From a virus (lineage: Duplodnaviria; Caudoviricetes), in the IMG/VR virus record IMGVR_UViG_3300030100_000755, positions 19,987-83,986 of that record: DNA of 64,000 nt, one strand, 5' to 3'. The number at the start of each line of letters is the position of its first letter. Position 1 is the stretch's first letter. The notes beneath the pieces were generated by a model. It saw only the letters and a list, made by a program, of their open reading frames with translations, did not search any database and was not told the origin of the DNA. The translations under genes and the position numbers were made by a program. Shown piece by piece: positions 11,901 to 47,029 of the stretch.

Positions 11901-14900
11901 ACTGTTTCAATGCGCTGTGTAGCAATATCAACTTCACCAGATACACCATCAATTAATAACTGAGCATTAGTGAATGATTCGTCTGTGTAGTTAAATGCTC
12001 GGTTAACTATTTGCCCGTTAGTTGGATCAACATAAACAACAGCATCAATAAGAGACTCACCAGCAGCTACTCTTCGCGCCAATTCCTCACGACTAGCAGC
12101 AGCTTGGATTTCAGATTGTAATAATTCAAGTTCAGATTGTTGTCTACGCTCAGATTCTGTTTTTAACCTAAATTCTATGTCACGATTAATACCAGATATT
12201 GCTGTGATCGAGTCAGTAATGTTTGATATATCTAGGTTAATATCATCAATATCAGAACCAATATCAGTAATGTCTAGGTTAATATCATCAATATCAGAAC
12301 CAATGTCGATAATATCTAGGTTAATATCATCAATACCAATCTCAATATTATCTAGTTCATCACGAATAGTATCGCTATTGAACACAACCTCTACTGATGT
12401 GGATGCATAATCAGACTCATTACCAGCAACATCAATAGTCTTAACAAAGAAATAATGAGTACCAACATCAGTTGTTGAGTATGTAGTGGTTAATGCATCT
12501 ACGCTACCGATTCCTATACTATCAGAAACATCTGTGAATGGTGGCTTACTAACTCTCACTTCATAATTATCAATAGCATAACCATTATTCGAGATAGACC
12601 ATCTCAGCCTAGATGTTAGACCCTCTTGTTCAGCAATGAAACTATTAGGGATAGGTGGTTGATTGACAAGTACATCAACGCTATCACCAATACCATATTC
12701 ACCAAACGTGTTGAATGATGATACATAATACATTTGTTGTGTTGTGAGTAATCCTAAGAAGAATGAATTATCCTTGGTTACACCAACAAAATTTTCATCT
12801 TCCACACCAAAGTTCAAATCAGTTCTGATCTCATAACCAGCTAACTCAGGGTCTTGAACAGGAGTGTATGTTAAGTACGTACCGTCTAAATTATGAACGT
12901 AGTTTAAGTTCTCAACTTCTGGTAAATCTTCACCTGCTCTTAGTTCAACAATAACGTTATTAGACCAACCAGAAACAGCACCGATTGGTGATCGAAATTG
13001 AGACCTAACCTCATATTTCAAACCACGATCTAGTGTTGTAACCTCAAAAGCAAACTGTGCTACATCACCTTGTGCAATATACTCCCAACCATCATCTTCA
13101 TCAAGAAAATACTCGTCTGGTGTGGTAGCAGTGAGTGGGAATGAACGCGCTTGAATATAAGCCCTATAATTCTTAGCTGGATATGATTGATCAGGACTAT
13201 TCACCAATATACTCATTACACCACGATTAGTGCTAACAGACATTACTGGACTAGGTGGTTGTGTAGTATCAGTTGGTATTGCAATGCTTGGATTATATGT
13301 GGGTACGGGATTACCATCGAAATCATACAACTCGTTTGCAGCATTCAACAGTGTTAATGTAGCACCTAAATCTTCATTATATTTTATGCTAGTGATAATA
13401 CAGTCGATGGCTTCTTTACCCACTTCACCATATATAACTAAATCACCAACTAAAACCTCAGCATCTAATGTATCACAATCAAATTGACCATCACCTAAAT
13501 ATGTGGCAGGACTAGTAGTAATAACACCTTTACTATCTCTAACCTGAACACCGAAGTTATTAGGTGGTAATTGGTCTGTGTTTATTTGTTCATCTAAAGT
13601 TATGACATTACCATTGATAGCTTTAATTCTACCAGCACCTAAGCCAACATTAATTATGTCATTGGTAACACGAACTAAATCACCACGCTTACTTGCTAAA
13701 ACCTCAGCATCTAAGTCTAAAGTATAAGCTTCTCGTCTTAGGAATTGCTCATAATAATCTAATCGAGTAAGACGATACGCTTGGTCAAAGTTGTCCACAC
13801 CCCATAAATCAACAGACGTGTATCTACCTTTAAGTAGTGTTTGGTCTAACGCTTTAGCAGGATCTAAGAATGTACCTTCATCTTGCTCATAATCAACATC
13901 TTTAGATTCAAACGTAAACTTAACACCATCTACTACTTCTGGATAAACTCTACGTGATTGGAAGTTAGCGCTGTTCTTAGGTGTAAATATTTGACGAGGT
14001 ACTACTTGCTTAATCTTTTCAATTACGCCAAACTTACCCTCATTAAATTGGAACTCAGCACGACCAACATAAGAAACATTTTTTAATTCTGTTAGTAATG
14101 TTGATTGGTAATCTATTAACGCAGAAATAGTCCAATTCTCATCAATACAACGCTGTCTCCAAGTCGATAAGCTATTATTATCGATCTTATCGTTAGGGAT
14201 AGGGCTGTAATTCATACCTCCCTGCATTAACCACTTATAAGCATCAGCAGGGTTATTAGAAGGTTCTAAGGTAAGGTTAGGCCAATCGCGCCAATCAGTA
14301 CTTTTATCAGAAGGGACAACCATTGTAGCATCACAATAAAGGTTATCTAAGTTACCATTTAACTGACCAGTGGCTCTCATTCTAACACCGATAACAGTAG
14401 GTCTAAAGTTACGAACAACATTACCATCATAACGAAGTCTTGGTCTGTTATAACCAATAGCCTCTTTAAACCCATCATCAGTCAACGGTCTAATTGTTTG
14501 CAAGTTTTCCCACTGAACATCAGCGGAACCCCTAGCCTCCTCAACTCGCTCTCTAGTAGGACCAACTTTTCTTGTTCTAATATTTATACTAGTTTGATTA
14601 CCCCATATTTGCGGAACACGAGGTATTCTAATTGATTTTAGCTTAGGTTTTCTAGTTGAATCGGTATATACTAGAGAGCCGATCTTATAGTTCTCTGGTA
14701 GGTTCTTGAAGAATAATAACCCATCTACATTAATGACTTCATAGTTACCTAATGATGATAGTCGCTCACCATTAGCGTTTACGAAACCCTCATCGAGTAG
14801 TCCATATATTTTATTCAGGATTGAACTGTCTTTCCATACTACAAAATCACCTTGATATGGAGATACAGCATAATCTCTAGGGTGTAAGACTGTACCACTA

Positions 14901-17001: not shown

Positions 17002-20000
17002 TTATCTCCTAGTTGGTTTACGTGTTAATCCGTAGTTATTATTCATTGTTCTATCGGTTCGACCAGCGTTGAACTCCTCTTGCATTACTTCACGAATGAA
17101 TATACGTAATTCAGCTTTACCGTTTTCAGCGTAACCTTGTTCAGTACGAGTTGCTTCAATCTGACCATTACCTTCATTGATAACTTGGACACTAATATCA
17201 CCCCAACTGTTACCACCTGATTCATTACGTATTGTTGGTACACGACCTACACTACCACCCATTTTAAGACCAACGGGTAATTTACCTTGGTTAAGCATAT
17301 CTAGCGTATCAACACCTAATAACCTTGTAGCAGCGGCATTAATAACGTATTCACCATCAGACAATCTAGCAGGAATACTATCACTAGTACCTGTACCAGC
17401 ACCGCTCACGTAACCACCTGTGGCAAAAGATTGTGACTTAATAGCCTTTATTTGTGCGCCAACTTGTGCGCCAGCCATTGCACTCAAACCAATCTTACCC
17501 CAAAACGGAACACTAGGGTCTGCCCATACTGAGTTAACTGCCATGGCTTGTTGAATAACCGCTTGACCAATAGCCATAGCCTGATAAGCCTTAGAATTTT
17601 CCTTACCCATAGTTTGCATAACGTTCATAGCTCCACCTAATACATCATTAGCGGCTTGTGCTTGGTTTGCAAACTCCATTTGAAAATTCTGCTGCTTGTA
17701 TTGATTCTCTAAATCAGCAAGGTGGTCTTTATACATTTGACTTTCTTCACCAAATATATCTTTTAGTGTTTGTTTACGTTGTTCAAAATCTTGTCGCAAT
17801 TGTTCAGTATTGGAGATAGGCCCAATCTGCGAAGCCTGTTGTCCTTGCATTCTAGCAGCAGCTAATGCCGCTTCTTTCTGCTTATCTAATTCCATCATTG
17901 AAGCAACGTATTGGTCTACCAGCTCCTTCTTTTTTTGAGGATCAGTAATACCACCCAAGGCAGCACCAACATCTTGACTTAACTGAGTACGTTGATTATC
18001 AAAGTTCTGGTTTATCCCCGCAATATTAGAGCTACTCGCGGTTATATTTTGCATCTGCTGCCTTGCATTAAATAATGACTGTGCCGCTTTCTGTGCATCT
18101 GTTGCTGCTGTAACTTGGTCTTTGTAAGCCTTAGCTAAATCTTTCTCAAATTGAACTCTATTCTTAATATTAGTAGTAACACCTAATGAATTAGCTAATC
18201 GTTGTTTATCGGCATCACTAAGTAATTTTAATGAGTTTAATTGCTTATTCATTGCTGTGGTATTTGCTAGAGCGGCTAACTTAGCATCAACTTGTGCTTG
18301 TGTACTACTGTTTGTATATATGGTAGTTTTAGCTTGAGCCTCATTAACAGCGGTAATAGCATCAGCATATAATTTCTGCTGATTCTTTAGGTCAGTAAGA
18401 CTCTTGTTAGCATCCTTAATATCTTGCTTATATTTGAACATAGTAGCAAGCATTTTAGTTTGTTCAGCGTCTAACTCGCTAACTGAATCCTTACCTAATT
18501 TATGAGCCTCAGCTAACATGAATGCTTCTTCAGTATTACCCTTAGCTTGTAATTGTAATACAGCGTAATTTTGTTGCAGTTTTTTAAGTGAACTAGATAG
18601 AGCCTCATTAGACTTAGCACTATCACTCATTTTTTCTAATGCTTCATTCAATCTAACCTGAGCCAAATAAGCATTTCTTAAATCTTCTGGTAATTCATCA
18701 AATGAATTAACACCTTTAGATAACGCAAATCGCAATTCATTTGCAGCTTTAGCATTACCCTCTAGTTCATACAGTAATGCTTGATTTTCTTTAATTACTT
18801 GCTGTGTACTAGATTCAAAAGCCATTGATTTCAATTCTTCTGATGTAGCACCAACAGCCTCTTTAAGAACTTTCATTACATCACTAGCATCTTTAGCTTT
18901 ATTAGTAAGAGATAGAATTTTACGAAGGAACTCCTCACCCTCTTTATTCAGATTACCATATTGATCTCTTAGTCCACCTATTGTACTAGTAAAGGTTGTG
19001 ATACCCTCCGCACTAGGGTCTTTCTCTAACTCCGAGTAAGCTTCGGCAACCGTCTTACCAAAATCCCTCGCTGGTGCGCCAGCTAAACCAAATTTCTCAC
19101 CAAACTCTTCAAATGCTATACTAGCTTGGTCTACGTTTGATACGATGTTTTTTCTAGCGGATGCAATTCTTTTAACTAGTTTAGCATCTGTGAAATCAGC
19201 CAATGCTCCTAGCTCATCAGATATAGCACCAACAGCTTTCTTAACACCTTTTTCAGCCTCAGTTAAATTGAGTCCAGCTTGCACTCTAGCTAAGTCTATA
19301 TTTATCTTAGCGAGATTCATTATCTCATCAGAAAGTGTGATTAAACTACCATCTGTTTTAATCGAAGATTCACGTAGATTATCTATCGCCTCAGCAAATT
19401 CCTCTACCGCATCCTTACCGTTAAACAATGTAGGTACTAGTGCGCTACCTAACGAGAATGCAATACCAGCAATAGCACCAGCAAGAGGTACACCTAACGC
19501 AAAACCTAAGTCAGCAGATTGTTGAGATAGTGCAATCATAGGATCAACACCACCTTGTACCTGACCAACGAATTGTTGAATCTGAATACCAGCTTGACCA
19601 GCACCACGACCAACACCTTTTAATTGACTACGTAAAGCTTGACTTGTGTTTTGAACCGCATTCCTAAACTGATTAATCTTATTAGCAGAATCAACCGTAG
19701 CCGCACCATTAGCTCTTACGGCAATAGTAGCAGTATCATAAGCTGACTTTAACTTTAATTCTTCTTCTCGTTGCGCAGACAAGGTTAGATTCGAGTTTCG
19801 TATAACTTGAACATATCTTTGATATTGTCTTTCTAATTCAGCAAGCTTGTTTACCTTAGAAACCTCTTGAGCTTCTGTGGTTTTAGTTACTTTGCTGTAT
19901 GACGCTAACCCTCTATTTATTTCACTTAATGATGAACTGTAATTAGCGTTAGCTTGTGATACTTTGGTTGTCTTACCAGCGGCACTTTCAATTTCACTAG

Positions 20001-39774: not shown

Positions 39775-40047
39775 ATGAGCAATCTTATTGATATGATAAT
39801 TTCAGACCTATTTAAGAATAGGTGGTCTGGTAATTTAGCAGAAGGTAATCTTGATGAACAAAAGAGACAATTGTTTAAGACATTAAAAGATCAAACAATG
39901 GGTTATTGGTCTGGTCATACGGCATACCATATCGCAGTAGATGGTGGTTTTCTAATAGATGGTAAAAGATGTACATATAAAAAAGTTACTCGTCTTGGCG
40001 CTATTTTTATTGAGCAATATTTAAAGGAGAATGATTATGTTTGTTAA
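39775..40047 (+). CDS. Hypothetical protein
   Basis: AGAGGAG SD; first gene after the promoter. Confidence 0.65.
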   Translation: MSNLIDMIISDLFKNRWSGNLAEGNLDEQKRQLFKTLKDQTMGYWSGHTAYHIAVDGGFLIDGKRCTYKKVTRLGAIFIEQYLKENDYVC

Positions 40048-40996
40048 ATTTGGAAAGATAGAGCAGTTCAGAAATGTAGTAAAACAAGTTAGGGATTATT
40101 GTTCTTATCATAATAAGCCCTTACCAACAATAGATTTTAATGGCACTGTTAAATTACACGGCACTAATGCCGCAGTCGGTGTTGATGAGTACGGAAATCT
40201 ATTTTGTCAATCTCGTTCTCGCGTTATAACACCTGATGACGATAACTTTGGGTTTGCAAACTTCGTTATGGATAATAAACATTACTTTGAATCACTTTTA
40301 GGATTCTTGTGTTATAGAGAAGATGTTGATTCATGTATTTTATATGGGGAATGGTGTGGAAGTAATATTCAAAAAGGTGTAGCTCTATCAGAACTTGATA
40401 AAATGTTTGTTGTGTTTGACGGTAAAGGTTTTCGTGGTGGTGATGAGTTTAAATTGAATGTTAACTTGATTGACCTAGACAATCAGTATAACGTATATAA
40501 CATCAATGAGTTCCCCACTTATAACGTGACGGTGGATTTCAACAACCCCGAAGATATTGTTAATACCTTAACCTCTATTACAGAACGTGTAGAAAAAGAA
40601 TGTCCAGTTGGTAAACATTTTAATGTATCTGGTGTAGGAGAAGGTGTGGTATGGACTTCTGATTTTAAAGGTAATGATTTGCGCTTTAAAGTAAAAGGGG
40701 AAAAGCATTCTGTATCTAAAGTTAAGAAATTGGTATCTGTCGATCCAGAAGTTGTAGAATCTGTTAAAAACTTTGTTGATTATGCGGTGACAGAAAATAG
40801 ACTAGAACAAGGATTACAAGAAGTTGGATTAGATCAAAATAAAATAGGAATGTTCATTGGTTGGGTTAATAAAGATATTAACAAAGAGGAAAAAGATGTT
40901 CTTGATAAAAATGGATTGACCATGAAGCAAGTTGGTGGTAAGGTTTCGGATAAAGCAAGGAATTTTTACCTAAACAAGCTTAATAATTTTAAATAA
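40031..40996 (+). CDS. RNA ligase 2-like (Rnl2 family)
   Basis: Motif I VKLHGTN, LYGEWCG, GEGVVW, FKVK. Confidence 0.82.
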   Translation: MIMFVKFGKIEQFRNVVKQVRDYCSYHNKPLPTIDFNGTVKLHGTNAAVGVDEYGNLFCQSRSRVITPDDDNFGFANFVMDNKHYFESLLGFLCYREDVDSCILYGEWCGSNIQKGVALSELDKMFVVFDGKGFRGGDEFKLNVNLIDLDNQYNVYNINEFPTYNVTVDFNNPEDIVNTLTSITERVEKECPVGKHFNVSGVGEGVVWTSDFKGNDLRFKVKGEKHSVSKVKKLVSVDPEVVESVKNFVDYAVTENRLEQGLQEVGLDQNKIGMFIGWVNKDINKEEKDVLDKNGLTMKQVGGKVSDKARNFYLNKLNNFK

Positions 40997-41013: not shown

Positions 41014-41571
41014 ATGACTAAACAACCATACCTAATCGTGGATTTAGAGACACTTGGTACTAAATCTAATTCAGTGATCATGTCTATTGGCGCTGTACTA
41101 TTCACAGAGAAAGGTATTGCTAAAGATAAGTTCTATACTAATATAGACATTAAATCATGCATTGATAAAGGTCTCAACGTTGATGGTGATACATTGATGT
41201 GGTGGATGGAGCAGAGTGATACAGCGCGTAATTCTTTAAATGGTAATCGACTACCACTAGATAAAGCATTGCAGAAACTAAAGAATTATGTCTTTAAAAA
41301 TGCTAAGACTTATGATGTTCATCCTGTCGGTAACAGTGCAAGATTCGATATGGGTCTGCTAGAAAATGCTTATAATGCTTGTGGGCAGGAAGTATTCTGG
41401 AAATTCTGGATGGAGCGCGATTACAGAACGTGGAAATCATTAAATGGTGCATTACCTATCTCAAGACATAATGGTTGCGATTCTGCTACACACAATGCAT
41501 TGCAGGACGCTATTGAGCAAGCTGAACATGCTATTGAGCTTAATAAACAATTCGGTGGTATATTGTTATGA
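41014..41571 (+). CDS. DEDD 3'-5' exo(ribo)nuclease
   Basis: DLETLG, GNSARFD, HNALQDA. Confidence 0.85.
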   Translation: MTKQPYLIVDLETLGTKSNSVIMSIGAVLFTEKGIAKDKFYTNIDIKSCIDKGLNVDGDTLMWWMEQSDTARNSLNGNRLPLDKALQKLKNYVFKNAKTYDVHPVGNSARFDMGLLENAYNACGQEVFWKFWMERDYRTWKSLNGALPISRHNGCDSATHNALQDAIEQAEHAIELNKQFGGILL

Positions 41572-43357: not shown

Positions 43358-44268
43358 TGAGTAGACCTAGTGCTAAAGTTATTGCACACAGTGAAGCGCC
43401 TAATGGTGAGCAGTTGATTACATTGGAAATTGAGTTGCATAGGTTTGTATTACCTGAGAATAACACACACAGATCTTTTAGTAGAAACTATGCTAGTTCT
43501 AGGGCTTGTCCAGTAACTAGTCAATTAGAACAAGTTGCTAATGATCCAGCAATGCCTGTCCATTGGGGTAAAAACCAATCTGGTATGGTTGCTGATAAAG
43601 AATTGTCAGGGATGGAGAGAAAACTAGCCGAGATGATCATATTAGGAATGCGAGATGCTTGCCTAAATGGGGTTAAACAGCTTGCTGAATTAGGTCTTCA
43701 TAAGCAAGTATCTAATCGCTACATTGAGCCTTGGCTTTGGACAAAGGGGGTTATAACAACAACCAAAGATGAATTTGACGCATTCTTTAGATTACGCTGC
43801 CATAAAGATGCACAACCTGAGATTAAGTTATTAGCAGAAAGAATGCGCGATGCTATTAATTCGAGTGTTTCTGTTAAGTTGAAAGTAGGTGATTACCATT
43901 TACCATATATTGAGTGTTATAAACCATTAGGATCAGGTAAGCAAGTGTTCCCTGTTGGTAATGGTACAAGTGAGGTGTATTCGTTAGAAAATGCCGTGAA
44001 GATTAGTACATCATGTTCAGCACAAGTGAGTTATCGTAGATTAGATACGTCATTAGAAAAGGCATTGAAAATTTACGATATGCTTAATTTGCCGAGTAAT
44101 GGTGAGTTTTCAGATGAGCCCGGTCATTTCTCTCCCACAGAACACCAAGCTAAAGTTGTGGATGTAACAGATGGTTATATGAGTAGTGGGAATTTCCATA
44201 GTAAAGTATTCTGGCAATATCGCAAGGCACTAGAATCAGGTACTGAAAATAAATTCTTGACAAATTAG
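43357..44268 (+). CDS. thyX: Flavin-dependent thymidylate synthase
   Basis: THRSFSRNYASSR motif; FFRLR..KDAQPEI. Confidence 0.8.
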   Translation: MSRPSAKVIAHSEAPNGEQLITLEIELHRFVLPENNTHRSFSRNYASSRACPVTSQLEQVANDPAMPVHWGKNQSGMVADKELSGMERKLAEMIILGMRDACLNGVKQLAELGLHKQVSNRYIEPWLWTKGVITTTKDEFDAFFRLRCHKDAQPEIKLLAERMRDAINSSVSVKLKVGDYHLPYIECYKPLGSGKQVFPVGNGTSEVYSLENAVKISTSCSAQVSYRRLDTSLEKALKIYDMLNLPSNGEFSDEPGHFSPTEHQAKVVDVTDGYMSSGNFHSKVFWQYRKALESGTENKFLTN

Positions 44269-44285
44269 ACATACTTATTTAATCT
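44257..44285 (+). promoter_or_regulatory. Sigma70-type promoter TTGACA-N17-TAATCT
   Basis: Near-consensus; upstream of the RNA ligase 1 / PNKP operon. Confidence 0.65.
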
Positions 44286-44288
44286 TAG

Positions 44289-44317
44289 AGGCGTTGGCGT
44301 TGTTCAGCGCCTTTTTA
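44289..44317 (+). terminator. Intrinsic terminator after thyX
   Basis: AGGCG...CGCCT followed by TTTT. Confidence 0.55.
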
Positions 44318-44334
44318 TTATGAGGAGATAAATT

Positions 44335-44916
44335 ATGGAAACTATTAAATACCTAAATGAATTTGGTCTTGATAAACTACAACAAGAATTGGGTATTAAG
44401 GTTAGTCAAAACGAAAATTATCCTGATTTATACGTACTTAATTATGACCAAATAAAAAGTCCTAAATATCATCCAATAGTGATTGAGTGTCGCAGTCTTG
44501 TTGTAAGACTTGAGGGTGATGAATATTTCGTAGAAAGTCGTAGTTTTGATAGATTCTTTAACTATGGTGAGATTGAAGGTCAACCAGACGATGTTGAAAA
44601 TATGGTTGCTTACCAGAAGATTGATGGCAGTTTAGTATCAGTATGGAAAAATGAAAAATATGGCTGGCTATATCGCACACGTTCTATGATTATGCCTTCT
44701 GTTGAGGTATGTATTAATGGTTATAAATTATCTTGGAAAGAGTTAATTGAGAGTGTTATCAATTTTGATAAGTTAGAGGAAATTCCTATAATTGACCACA
44801 CTTATATTTTCGAGGTAGTTAGTCCAGAAAATAGAGTAGTAACCCCTTACTCTCAGAGAGAAGCTTTTTTATTATCCATAAGGAGTAATATTGATGGAAA
44901 CTACAGAAAAAGATAA
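44335..44916 (+). CDS. RNA ligase 1 (T4 Rnl1-like), N-terminal part
   Basis: ECRSLV, SFDRFFNYGE, motif I QKIDGS, YIFEVVSPENRVV; stops before motifs IV and V. Confidence 0.85.
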   Translation: METIKYLNEFGLDKLQQELGIKVSQNENYPDLYVLNYDQIKSPKYHPIVIECRSLVVRLEGDEYFVESRSFDRFFNYGEIEGQPDDVENMVAYQKIDGSLVSVWKNEKYGWLYRTRSMIMPSVEVCINGYKLSWKELIESVINFDKLEEIPIIDHTYIFEVVSPENRVVTPYSQREAFLLSIRSNIDGNYRKR

Positions 44917-45581
44917 AATTTGCTATGTGTACCATATATGCAGAGGTTCTGACATATTTAACTATAGTTGTGGGTATATTGGTGTATCATTCTACCCACA
45001 AAAAAGATTAAACTTCCATAAAAATAGAAGCGAAAATCCACATTTAAAAAATGCATTCTCGACTTATAATGATATTATAATGTACTGCATAATGTGTTCA
45101 AAAGAATCCGACTTTTGTTATACATTTGAGATGTTACTCAGGCCATACAAAAATATGGGGTGGAATATAAATGTTGGGGGCATACAACCACCAAACCCGA
45201 AAGGTACTAAAAATTGTATATCTAATTTACCAGCACACAAGAGACGTAAAAATTTTAAACATTCTGAAGATACGAAAGAATATTTAAAATTTTTATAAAA
45301 ATAACAAGGAGTATTTTTCGGACATAAAATTGGGAGAAGCTAACCCAATGTGCAGGAAGTTTGGGCAATCAAATCCAAATTTTGTTTGGTGGTACTGTAC
45401 CAATGATGGTATATTTGATAGCTCCACAACAATGGGTTTATACTATAAGGTTGATCGTAATACGATATTACACAGATACAAAAATTTAGATATTCCTATA
45501 AAGAGGAGTAGGTGGCACCCAAAACAAATTTGGGGTAAGACTTGGAGAGAGCTTGGTTGGATTAGATATAGGAGTGAAAAT
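44891..45581 (+). mobile_element. GIY-YIG homing endonuclease inserted in Rnl1, frameshifted near 45288
   Basis: VYHI...GYIGVS...RLNFH in 44891-45298; the +1 frame is open from 45288 and holds GEANPM..KFG.SNPNF and GKTWRELGW. Confidence 0.75.
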
Positions 45582-46100
45582 ATGAATTATGAAGAAATAT
45601 GTGAAAAATTAGGATGTCAACCCCCTAGAATTATTAGATTTACTAACAAGGAGGATATATTAGAACAGGTGCAAAACTTGCCAGAGTTACAGGAAGGTTT
45701 TGTCCTATTTGACAGAGAGGGTAAGCCTACGCTTAAAATAAAATCGCAGCAATACGTTAGATTTCATAGAATGCGCGGAGAAACTAGACCAACACCTAAG
45801 CGAATTATGGATATATTGTTTATTAATGAGCAGGACGAGTATTTATCCATATTCCCAGAGGATAAACCTTTATTTCAACCTTATGAAAATGCGTTTCAAT
45901 CAACATCTTATGATTTTGACCATTTGTGGAGTAAATTTGGAGATATTGCAGACCAAAAAGAGTTCGCCATGAATGTTAAACAATATTCTGTATGTGGATT
46001 ATTGTTTAAGAAGAAACAGCAGCCAGAGTTAACGTTTTTGGATTGCTTTAATATGCTGCTGACTGCTACTAAATATAAATTATTGGAGAAATATGTATGA
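45582..46100 (+). CDS. RNA ligase 1, C-terminal part
   Basis: AGGAG SD then ATG 45582; motif IV QEGFVL, motif V LKIKS..YVRFH. Confidence 0.8.
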   Translation: MNYEEICEKLGCQPPRIIRFTNKEDILEQVQNLPELQEGFVLFDREGKPTLKIKSQQYVRFHRMRGETRPTPKRIMDILFINEQDEYLSIFPEDKPLFQPYENAFQSTSYDFDHLWSKFGDIADQKEFAMNVKQYSVCGLLFKKKQQPELTFLDCFNMLLTATKYKLLEKYV

Positions 46101-47029
46101 AAAATAAAATCATATTAACAATAGGTGCTAGTTGTTCAGGTAAAACAACATGGGCACAAGAATATATTGATGATCACGCGTTAGGTAGTGTAATTAGTCT
46201 GAATAGGGATGACATTAGATTCATGTTGTTCACAAACGGCACTAGGGACTGGACAAAGTATAAATTTAATAATAAAAATGAACAAGCGGTAACAGAATAT
46301 ATTGATAGTAGGGCTTTAGAATGCATTGCTCGTGGTTCTGACATTATAATCAGCGATACAAACCTAAACCAAAAAATACGTAATAAGTGGAAACAATTCG
46401 CTGACGAACACGATTACGAATACGTTGAGCAAATATTCCCTTGTGATTGGAAAGAATTGGTTAAACGAAACGCACAAAGACATGGTGGTCTATCAGAATC
46501 ACTGTTATGGTCGCAATATAAGCGTTTCATGCAGCAATATGGTTATATTGGTGATAACAAAGTTGAAGTATATCAAGAACAGCGTAAATTAGAACATTGT
46601 ATCATAGTTGATATTGATGGTACTGTGGCTGACATGCGAGGAGTTCGTAAGCCTTTTGAGTGGGATAAAGTACATTTTGATAAACCGCGCAGTGAGATTA
46701 TTGCTATGGTTGAGGGGTTAGCTATTAGGAATGGTCATGTTATTTTCATGTCTGGTAGGGATGGTTCTTGTTATGATTATACGTTAGAATGGATTGAAAA
46801 GCATATCACAGCAGGATGGGATGATTACTTTAAGTATGACCTAATAATGCGTGAAGAAGGTGATATGCGCAAAGATGATATTGTTAAATATGAGCTATAC
46901 AACCAGTTCGTTAAAGATACATATAATGTTGCTGCTGTAATTGATGACAGAAAAAGTGTTATTCGATTGTGGTCTGTGTTAGAATTACCAAACATTATTG
47001 ATGTTGGTGGATATCAAAATGAGTTTTAA
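46097..47029 (+). CDS. pseT: Polynucleotide 5'-kinase / 3'-phosphatase
   Basis: GASCSGKT, LNRDDIR, IISDTNL, HAD motif DIDGT, SGRD, DDR. Confidence 0.92.
   Translation: MKNKIILTIGASCSGKTTWAQEYIDDHALGSVISLNRDDIRFMLFTNGTRDWTKYKFNNKNEQAVTEYIDSRALECIARGSDIIISDTNLNQKIRNKWKQFADEHDYEYVEQIFPCDWKELVKRNAQRHGGLSESLLWSQYKRFMQQYGYIGDNKVEVYQEQRKLEHCIIVDIDGTVADMRGVRKPFEWDKVHFDKPRSEIIAMVEGLAIRNGHVIFMSGRDGSCYDYTLEWIEKHITAGWDDYFKYDLIMREEGDMRKDDIVKYELYNQFVKDTYNVAAVIDDRKSVIRLWSVLELPNIIDVGGYQNEF

Follow-up and report, generated by a model that had tools for sequence, protein, structure and literature searches.

Genes in pieces – host genes divided in two, with a free-standing homing endonuclease gene (HEG) between the parts – are a known phenomenon. 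In Aeromonas phage Aeh1, arranged as nrdA-a/mobE/nrdA-b, a free-standing endonuclease splits the active site of the enzyme over two chains, and short insertion-derived tails are needed for its assembly (Crona et al. 2011, PMC3045599; review PMC2988022). The gene mobA lies in T4 gene 39/60, and a seg-like gene in the split gene 43 of Aeromonas phage 25 (review PMC2988022). In ‘fractured genes’, split inteins are combined with a free-standing endonuclease, and the N- and C-intein halves trans-splice the product (Dassa et al. 2009, PMC2677866). Here, we describe a stretch of 64,000 nucleotides (the window; positions 19,987 to 83,986 of IMG/VR virus record IMGVR_UViG_3300030100_000755) from an uncultured marine tailed phage, in which a HEG of the GIY-YIG type sits in rnl, the gene for an RNA ligase of the T4 Rnl1 type, without a recognizable intron or intein, and divides it into two open reading frames (ORFs), RnlN and RnlC. 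We put at roughly 0.7 the probability that the HEG-split Rnl1 acts as a two-chain enzyme, a reading suggested by sequence comparison and structural models.

T4 RNA ligase 1 (RnlA, gp63; PDB 2C5U, 5TT6, 9DO4) acts together with Pnkp in tRNA restriction-repair, and by profile, motifs and fold RnlN and RnlC belong to its family, Rnl1. RnlN, the N-terminal piece (44335..44916, + strand, 193 aa, frame 1), matches positions 1-151 of the 227 in Pfam profile RNA_lig_T4_1 (PF09511) at E 1.6e-10 and passes the cutoff; RnlC, the C-terminal piece (45582..46100, + strand, 172 aa, frame 0), falls below the Pfam threshold when searched alone. Both match PHROG 562 (T4-type RNA ligase, profile length 377), RnlN at 20-192 and RnlC at 213-343, and the C part of a relative discussed below, P0052, matches the same profile from position 194. 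An uninterrupted homologue in Pseudoalteromonas phage J2-1 is related to T4 Rnl1 at E 3.6e-16.

The two pieces share out the catalytic motifs between them. On RnlN are motif I (K95-x-D97-G98) and motif III (E160), along with the conserved upstream residues R53, F71, R73, F74 and N76; on RnlC are motifs IV (E38-G39) and V (K52-x-K54) as well as the helical C-terminal domain. Motif IIIa lies before the insertion and motif IV after it, which puts the cut within the catalytic domain, and the active site would be composite, because motifs I and III are on one piece and motifs IV and V on the other. An earlier note on this DNA had assigned the upstream motifs to a 193-aa N-terminal part and motifs IV and V to a separate ORF with a Shine-Dalgarno sequence and ATG of its own, and both assignments are borne out: an AGGAG at 45570..45574 (+ strand) lies 7 nt 5′ of the RnlC ATG at 45582. 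The residues of motifs I, III, IV and V are invariant in the aligned homologues (n=61 for N, n=49 for C), and the family-invariant columns, 16 in N and 12 in C, are all retained in every split copy.

Nothing of the ligase has been lost at the break. RnlN ends in ...IRSNIDGNY followed by a three-residue tail, RKR, encoded by the first codons of the HEG cassette, and RnlC begins M-N-Y-E-E-I-C-E-K-L-G. Alignment with uninterrupted homologues, which the earlier note had proposed as a check for missing residues, was made with P0055, P0053 and the proteins of phages D69, GD1 and J2-1; the halves share two residues, and every residue of the ligase is accounted for. P0055, the nearest relative, is uninterrupted and 72% identical in the N domain. 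In the alignment with T4 Rnl1, the cut falls at ...LLNVRENETGEY|ISY.... A target-site duplication flanking the insert (QREAFLLSIRSNIDGNY vs WRELGWIRYRSENMNY) was considered and rejected, the score of the DNA alignment being not above chance (p about 0.1); the solid overlap at the junction consists of the two residues N-Y only.

Structure prediction places the break in a loop. In the AlphaFold2 model of P0055 (predicted local distance difference test score, pLDDT, 96.2), it lies between a strand (181-189) with its turn and a helix (198-204), and the top Foldseek matches of this model are the T4 Rnl1 structures 2c5u, 5tt6 and 9do4, followed by fungal Trl1. When RnlN and RnlC were predicted as a complex, each chain with its own alignment, the score was 0.88 and that of the best control 0.00; of 80 solved complexes, 58 attained that mark, as did 2 of 110 mismatched pairs. 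This is to be taken as likeness and not as proof of binding, because together the chains look like T4 Rnl1, whose single-chain structure has been solved. At least 97% of contacts are common to the runs, and the partner pLDDT is at least 89. The modelled interface takes in the cut ends (N 189-193, C 1-3), which are adjacent to each other, and brings the RnlN strand with motif I against motif IV in RnlC.

The 677 nt separating RnlN from RnlC are filled wholly by two pieces of a HEG, and all three + strand reading frames are in use across the ligase-HEG-ligase region. Piece 1 (44894..45298, + strand, 134 aa, frame 2) contains the GIY-YIG catalytic domain, a linker and a first NUMOD3-like repeat; its ATG at 44894 overlaps the 3′ end of RnlN by 23 nt, and its AGGAG (44881..44885, + strand) lies inside the RnlN codons for I-R-S. 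The frame carries the GIY-YIG signature (..YVYHIC..GYIGVS..KR..H..FE..GWN..) with its typical Tyr/Tyr, Arg, His, Glu and Asn residues, and the HEG matches annotated Vibrio phage homing endonucleases, which are single ORFs of 193-236 aa, at a tblastn E of 3e-20. The Pfam GIY-YIG match is weak (20.6 bits, cutoff 22.6); P0052, to which piece 1 is 63% identical over the corresponding part, has PHROG 314 (‘homing endonuclease’) as a match (1.7e-7). Piece 2 (45288..45581, + strand, frame 0) is the DNA-binding part at the C-terminus; it has no stop and continues into RnlC. It makes up the first 98 codons of the frame-0 ORF, which align with the C-terminal DNA-binding part of the Vibrio phage endonucleases, and it has the conserved segments ...NPNF..W/Y..DG.F.S... 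and ...WGKTWR(D/E)(I/L)GW....

The catalytic and DNA-binding parts of the endonuclease are therefore not in one polypeptide in the window, where frame 2 meets a stop (TAA 45296) and the frame then changes. The earlier note had described the gap as coding entirely for a GIY-YIG protein, which is right in that all 677 nt are filled but not in that they form a single ORF. Likewise, its statement that the C-terminal ligase part lies in a different frame is true with respect to RnlN (frame 0 vs frame 1), but RnlC is in the same frame as HEG piece 2.

Comparison of the locus with Logan contigs of four public runs accounts for the broken HEG. Contigs of runs X4 (a coral-reef metagenome) and X5 (a marine metagenome), from independent DNA studies, have the same arrangement and bridge both junctions. 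At 45286..45290 (+ strand), the site of a 2-nt deletion and neighbouring substitutions in the window, they carry two extra bases (+CG or +GC, at 45286 or 45288) and nearby substitutions, by which frame 2 runs into frame 0. The X4 variant, as reconstructed, is one HEG-RnlC ORF of 402 aa with no stop before 46100 (positions 45782-45802, uncovered by X4 contigs, were taken from the window). Because this variant reads through as one ORF, the window copy is a natural frameshift mutant of the HEG with a 2-nt deletion; the frameshifted copy is also present in three runs of the probable source study. At the population level, the HEG decays while the ligase pieces remain intact.

The intact form of the cassette is not confined to X4 and X5. 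Two further proteins, P0052 and P0072 (399 aa each), have the catalytic and DNA-binding parts joined and the same HEG fused in frame to RnlC; they and the window copy are 49-51% identical to one another. Since P0052 and a split N-fragment, P0002, are on contigs of identical size (8,918 nt), the two are probably on one contig. The HEG-RnlC junction is conserved as protein, reading ...W-G-K-T-W-R-D/E-I/L-G-W, about 7-8 residues, then M-N/S-Y-x-E-L/I-C..., and the RnlC Met is conserved in both fused relatives.

A separate feature of the X4 data concerns the flanks. X4 contigs over 44131-44561 and 46128-46400 have 20-30 times the depth of those over the rnl/HEG interior, and loose ends diverge at 44577, inside RnlN, and at exactly 46097, the RnlC stop and pnkp start. 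From the loose ends and the higher flank depth, there is a more abundant relative in X4 that has the flanks in common and a different sequence over most of rnl. The pattern looks like a recombination or gene-conversion boundary around the HEG (compare PMC10055350).

Uninterrupted homologues of 355-375 aa, such as those of Vibrio phage D69, Paraglaciecola GD virus 1 and Pseudoalteromonas phage J2-1, are the rule: the gene is uninterrupted at 78 of 80 IMG/VR loci and in 140 of the 150 best cluster representatives, and uninterrupted relatives number at least 95. A search of 5.8 billion proteins with RnlN returned 18 other N-fragments of 189-207 aa, 37-59% identical, many of them on contigs of 10-218 kb, and every one stops 0-5 residues past the same conserved G-x-Y. 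From the other side of the break, an exhaustive search of representatives found four stand-alone C-fragments (P0076, P0101, P0105 and P0144) that begin at the position of the RnlC Met. Other searches added none: a word-based search for stand-alone C-fragments returned the window’s own protein only, metagenome scans with a fusion alignment and with P0009 gave no matches, and an IMG/VR scan with the fusion alignment gave uninterrupted genes only (L090-L092). One IMG/VR locus, L064, is broken at the same point and has RnlN (195 aa), another GIY-YIG/NUMOD3 gene (268 aa) on the opposite strand, RnlC and Pnkp in that order, with no intron match at the locus. On these sequence grounds, the split site appears to be a recurrent hot spot, shared by about twenty further uncultured phages.

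In a maximum-likelihood tree built from 103 N domains, no fewer than 12 changes of the split state are required, at least 8 of which are forced by well-supported branches, and the nearest relative of the window is uninterrupted. There are also clades in which every member is split, for example P0031/34/35/38 and most of the P0004-P0011 group, and these persist over branch lengths of 0.1-0.3. Judged from the sequences, the scattered distribution ties the split to a mobile cassette, and the pattern fits one that repeatedly enters, and sometimes leaves, a single tolerated site, with the split ligase under selection. The earlier note had missed this recurrence, as well as the frameshift in the HEG and the fusion of its intact form to the C half.

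Two observations on the family stand apart from the split. In IMG/VR loci related to J2-1 (L027:4001-6600 and L028), a J2-1-like Rnl1 breaks off after about residue 172 and gives way to unrelated sequence; next comes an HsdM-like methyltransferase of 585 aa (type I restriction-modification). The gene is thus disrupted there in another manner. In J2-1 itself (MF370964.1; L003:2501-3577), Rnl1 is intact at 358 aa, and its gene is unannotated in GenBank, where the adjacent pnkp is annotated.

The earlier note had left a choice between a natural two-chain Rnl1 and a dead one, and the balance favours the former. According to the latter, insertion of the HEG killed the ligase, the ORFs are its as yet undecayed remains, and the Rnl2-like RNA ligase encoded 3.3 kb upstream of rnl1 (40031..40996, + strand; PF09414, E 2.5e-12) does the work of RNA repair. 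The position of the insertion within the catalytic domain, between motifs IIIa and IV, would be consistent with this, as would the presence of that second ligase and the decay of the HEG in the window copy, which shows that the locus accumulates lesions. However, that lesion struck the HEG and spared the ligase pieces, neither ligase ORF is shortened or has lost a family-invariant residue, and the distal half has a canonical gene-start signal. Moreover, the break recurs with intact catalytic motifs in 18 N-fragments, four C-fragments and two fusions at 37-59% identity, split-only clades included, and the two chains are predicted to reassemble. We consider a dead ligase unlikely.

Several considerations do weigh against a two-chain enzyme. 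The Rnl2-like ligase could make Rnl1 dispensable, such that loss of its function is tolerated. The split state of most of the metagenomic N-fragments is deduced only from the position at which the ORF ends. The high score of the predicted complex may reflect only the joint likeness of the pair to single-chain T4 Rnl1. Finally, contigs from RNA libraries, X8 and X9, cover 44571-44861, 45013-45165 and 45308-45544 at 100% identity, with no joined form and neither junction bridged; the cover is partial and may be carried-over DNA, and because of this and of the unbridged junctions these contigs neither show transcription nor exclude splicing.

The open frame ahead of RnlC raises the question of which product the distal half provides. 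ATG 45582 is an internal start, the frame being open for 98 codons upstream. Among the 29 AGGAG-N6-9-ATG motifs in the window (both strands), all of which precede ORFs of at least 50 aa, only the AGGAG-N7-ATG of RnlC is itself preceded by a long open frame. The distal half might then act mainly as a HEG-RnlC fusion with the internal start being secondary, in which case the ligase of the window would be impaired or would rely on a truncated product, the DNA-binding domain joined to RnlC. The stopless intact HEG does read into RnlC in the X4 variant, as it does in P0052 and P0072, and the junction is conserved as protein, the conserved C-terminus of the HEG ending about 8 residues before the RnlC Met. 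Yet that Met is present, with a full-strength Shine-Dalgarno sequence in the window, stand-alone C-fragments start from the same Met in other lineages, and the antisense gene of L064 makes a fusion impossible. The fusions are also subject to ascertainment bias, as HEG lineages with a stop would be scored as C-fragments only. A distal half working chiefly as a fusion is thus improbable.

A related proposal, still doubtful, is that the natural product of this HEG lineage is a bifunctional HEG-RnlC fusion, and that this fusion and free RnlC, the latter produced from the internal start, both dock onto RnlN. The selfish gene would then, tentatively, borrow the distal half of its host gene as its own C-terminus, an arrangement kept in three lineages at about 50% identity. 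If so, a homing endonuclease would be physically coupled to an RNA-repair ligase, and expression of the element tied to restoration of the host function, a new route by which an element neutralizes its own insertion, distinct from introns, inteins and the tails of Aeh1.

No Rfam family matches 44000-46500 at E <= 10, in keeping with the earlier note’s claim that there is no intron. As a positive control, a group I intron (RF00028) was found in nrdA of the same phage at 60.1 bits and E 2e-14; it lacks an ORF, matches the full model (1-253), and lies at L089:623-888 (- strand), corresponding to about 12422-12687 of its own genome (G000:C1). The phage genome thus combines a group I intron in nrdA with an intron-less HEG insertion in rnl. 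There is no free sequence for a ribozyme core of roughly 200 nt, because the whole 677 nt are protein-coding and conserved. Neither a Hint nor an intein domain was found in a Pfam scan, and the locus has no space in which intein halves could fit. RNA folds around both internal start sites and junctions are no more stable than those of shuffled sequences. Removal of the interruption at the level of RNA or translation to give one polypeptide, whether by an unrecognized self-splicing intron overlapping the HEG ORF or by ribosomal bypassing or frameshifting, is very improbable, since the nrdA intron, the intron-like conservation of the insertion site and the +1 overlap of RnlN and HEG (seen here and, judging from protein ends, apparently also in P0002/P0052) have to be set against the empty Rfam search, 677 nt conserved as protein in three lineages at about 50% identity, the antisense orientation in L064, the unremarkable folds and, weakly, the lack of a joined form in the RNA-library contigs.

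We return to the two-chain ligase and to how it may have arisen. A free-standing GIY-YIG cassette, without intron or intein, would have inserted into a T4-type rnl gene adjoining pnkp, at a surface loop of the nucleotidyltransferase domain that follows the R-x-N-x-x-G-x-Y strand and turn and precedes the next helix. The cassette would provide the proximal half with a stop, leaving the three-residue tail, the HEG with a start served by an AGGAG that lies in ligase codons, and the distal half with a second AGGAG-N7-ATG at which translation restarts. RnlN and RnlC would be translated separately and come together, without a covalent link, as a ligase whose active site is composite, with K95 of RnlN as the probable adenylylated lysine, and we infer that this ligase and the adjacent Pnkp would repair cleaved tRNA. 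The HEG would spread by homing into uninterrupted rnl alleles, for which its patchy occurrence across the tree (at least 8-12 changes of state) offers indirect support. An intact HEG, having no stop of its own, would be read through into RnlC as a fusion protein, and in the genome of the window the HEG is already inactivated by the 2-nt deletion, both ligase pieces still being intact.

The surroundings of the split gene are as follows. Upstream of rnl is a gene for ThyX, and in the thyX/rnl intergenic region a terminator-like hairpin (44287..44314, + strand; an 11-pair stem and then a T run, a consensus match only) forms the upstream boundary of an rnl-pnkp unit. The Shine-Dalgarno AGGAG of RnlN (44323..44327, + strand) lies 7 nt 5′ of its ATG at 44335. 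Downstream, the start of the gene for Pnkp (polynucleotide kinase-phosphatase; 46097..47029, + strand; HAD_PNKP 1e-36, AAA_33 2.4e-19), the end-healing partner, overlaps the RnlC stop. Between the Rnl2-like ligase and rnl1-pnkp, a 3′-5′ exoribonuclease (Rv2179c-like, Pfam E 2.5e-46) is encoded at 41014-41571 and enlarges the RNA-processing cluster. There are near-consensus sigma-70-like matches 5′ of the HEG start (TTGATA-16-TATAAT, 11/12; 44765-44792) and 5′ of RnlC (TTGATA-18-TATACT; 45415-45444), and sigma-70-like promoter matches as a class are not in excess in the region (20 vs 19.1 in shuffled sequence). GC content gives no contrast between insert (0.29-0.33) and flanks (0.32-0.38).

Searches of the literature for split rnlA or Rnl1 found no published description, nor, in the literature searched, was there one of an in-frame HEG-RnlC fusion architecture. 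The split rnl extends the known phenomenon of genes in pieces to a new host gene and adds an architectural variant to it; what the window contributes is a cassette on the sense strand, the intact form of which is in translational fusion with the distal half of the ligase, together with direct evidence at the population level of HEG decay next to undamaged ligase pieces. In sequence family, fold, motifs I, III, IV and V and the pnkp adjoining it in the window, the ligase is like T4 Rnl1, which differs in being a single chain of 374 aa, whereas the window ligase is cut at LLNVRENETGEY|ISY. Split-ligase tools could be modelled on an Rnl1 that is split in nature and has a composite active site.

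The fractured genes are alike in being metagenomic, phage-like loci with a host gene in two parts and an endonuclease gene between them. They differ in having intein halves, of which there are none here: RnlN ends three residues past the conserved Tyr, RnlC starts at the break, and there is no Hint match. T4 gene 39/60 and gene 43 of Aeromonas phage 25 likewise have a phage enzyme in two cistrons with a free-standing endonuclease gene between; the host genes are others, and the rnl case has no translational bypass element. In gene 43, the endonuclease may or may not be the cause of the split, whereas the scatter on the tree appears to tie the rnl split to a mobile cassette.

As in Aeh1, an enzyme gene is interrupted by a HEG that has no intron or intein around it, the cut falls between elements of secondary structure in the catalytic fold, the active-site residues are divided between two coding regions, and there are short insertion-derived tails; the Aeh1 enzyme reassembles, and here reassembly is predicted. 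The host gene and endonuclease differ, being NrdA and an HNH enzyme in Aeh1 and Rnl1 and a GIY-YIG enzyme here, and the RnlN tail is only three residues long. In Aeh1, mobE merely overlaps nrdA-b, whereas the intact HEG is fused in frame to the distal half of the ligase. The split of the putative two-chain Rnl1 is found again and again, in about 20 diverged lineages, and the cassettes are of at least two kinds. If it works as proposed, Rnl1 would join the short list of enzymes known or proposed to function after being split by a HEG – nrdA, the gene 39/60 topoisomerase and possibly gene 43. That the split recurs suggests that this loop of the nucleotidyltransferase fold is structurally permissive, and if this is right, the life cycle of a HEG in coding sequence, from invasion through fusion and decay to loss, could be read from metagenomes. 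Unlike the single precedents, the rnl case provides many natural replicates that are independent of one another; their cassettes occur in both orientations, and the HEG is either intact or decayed.

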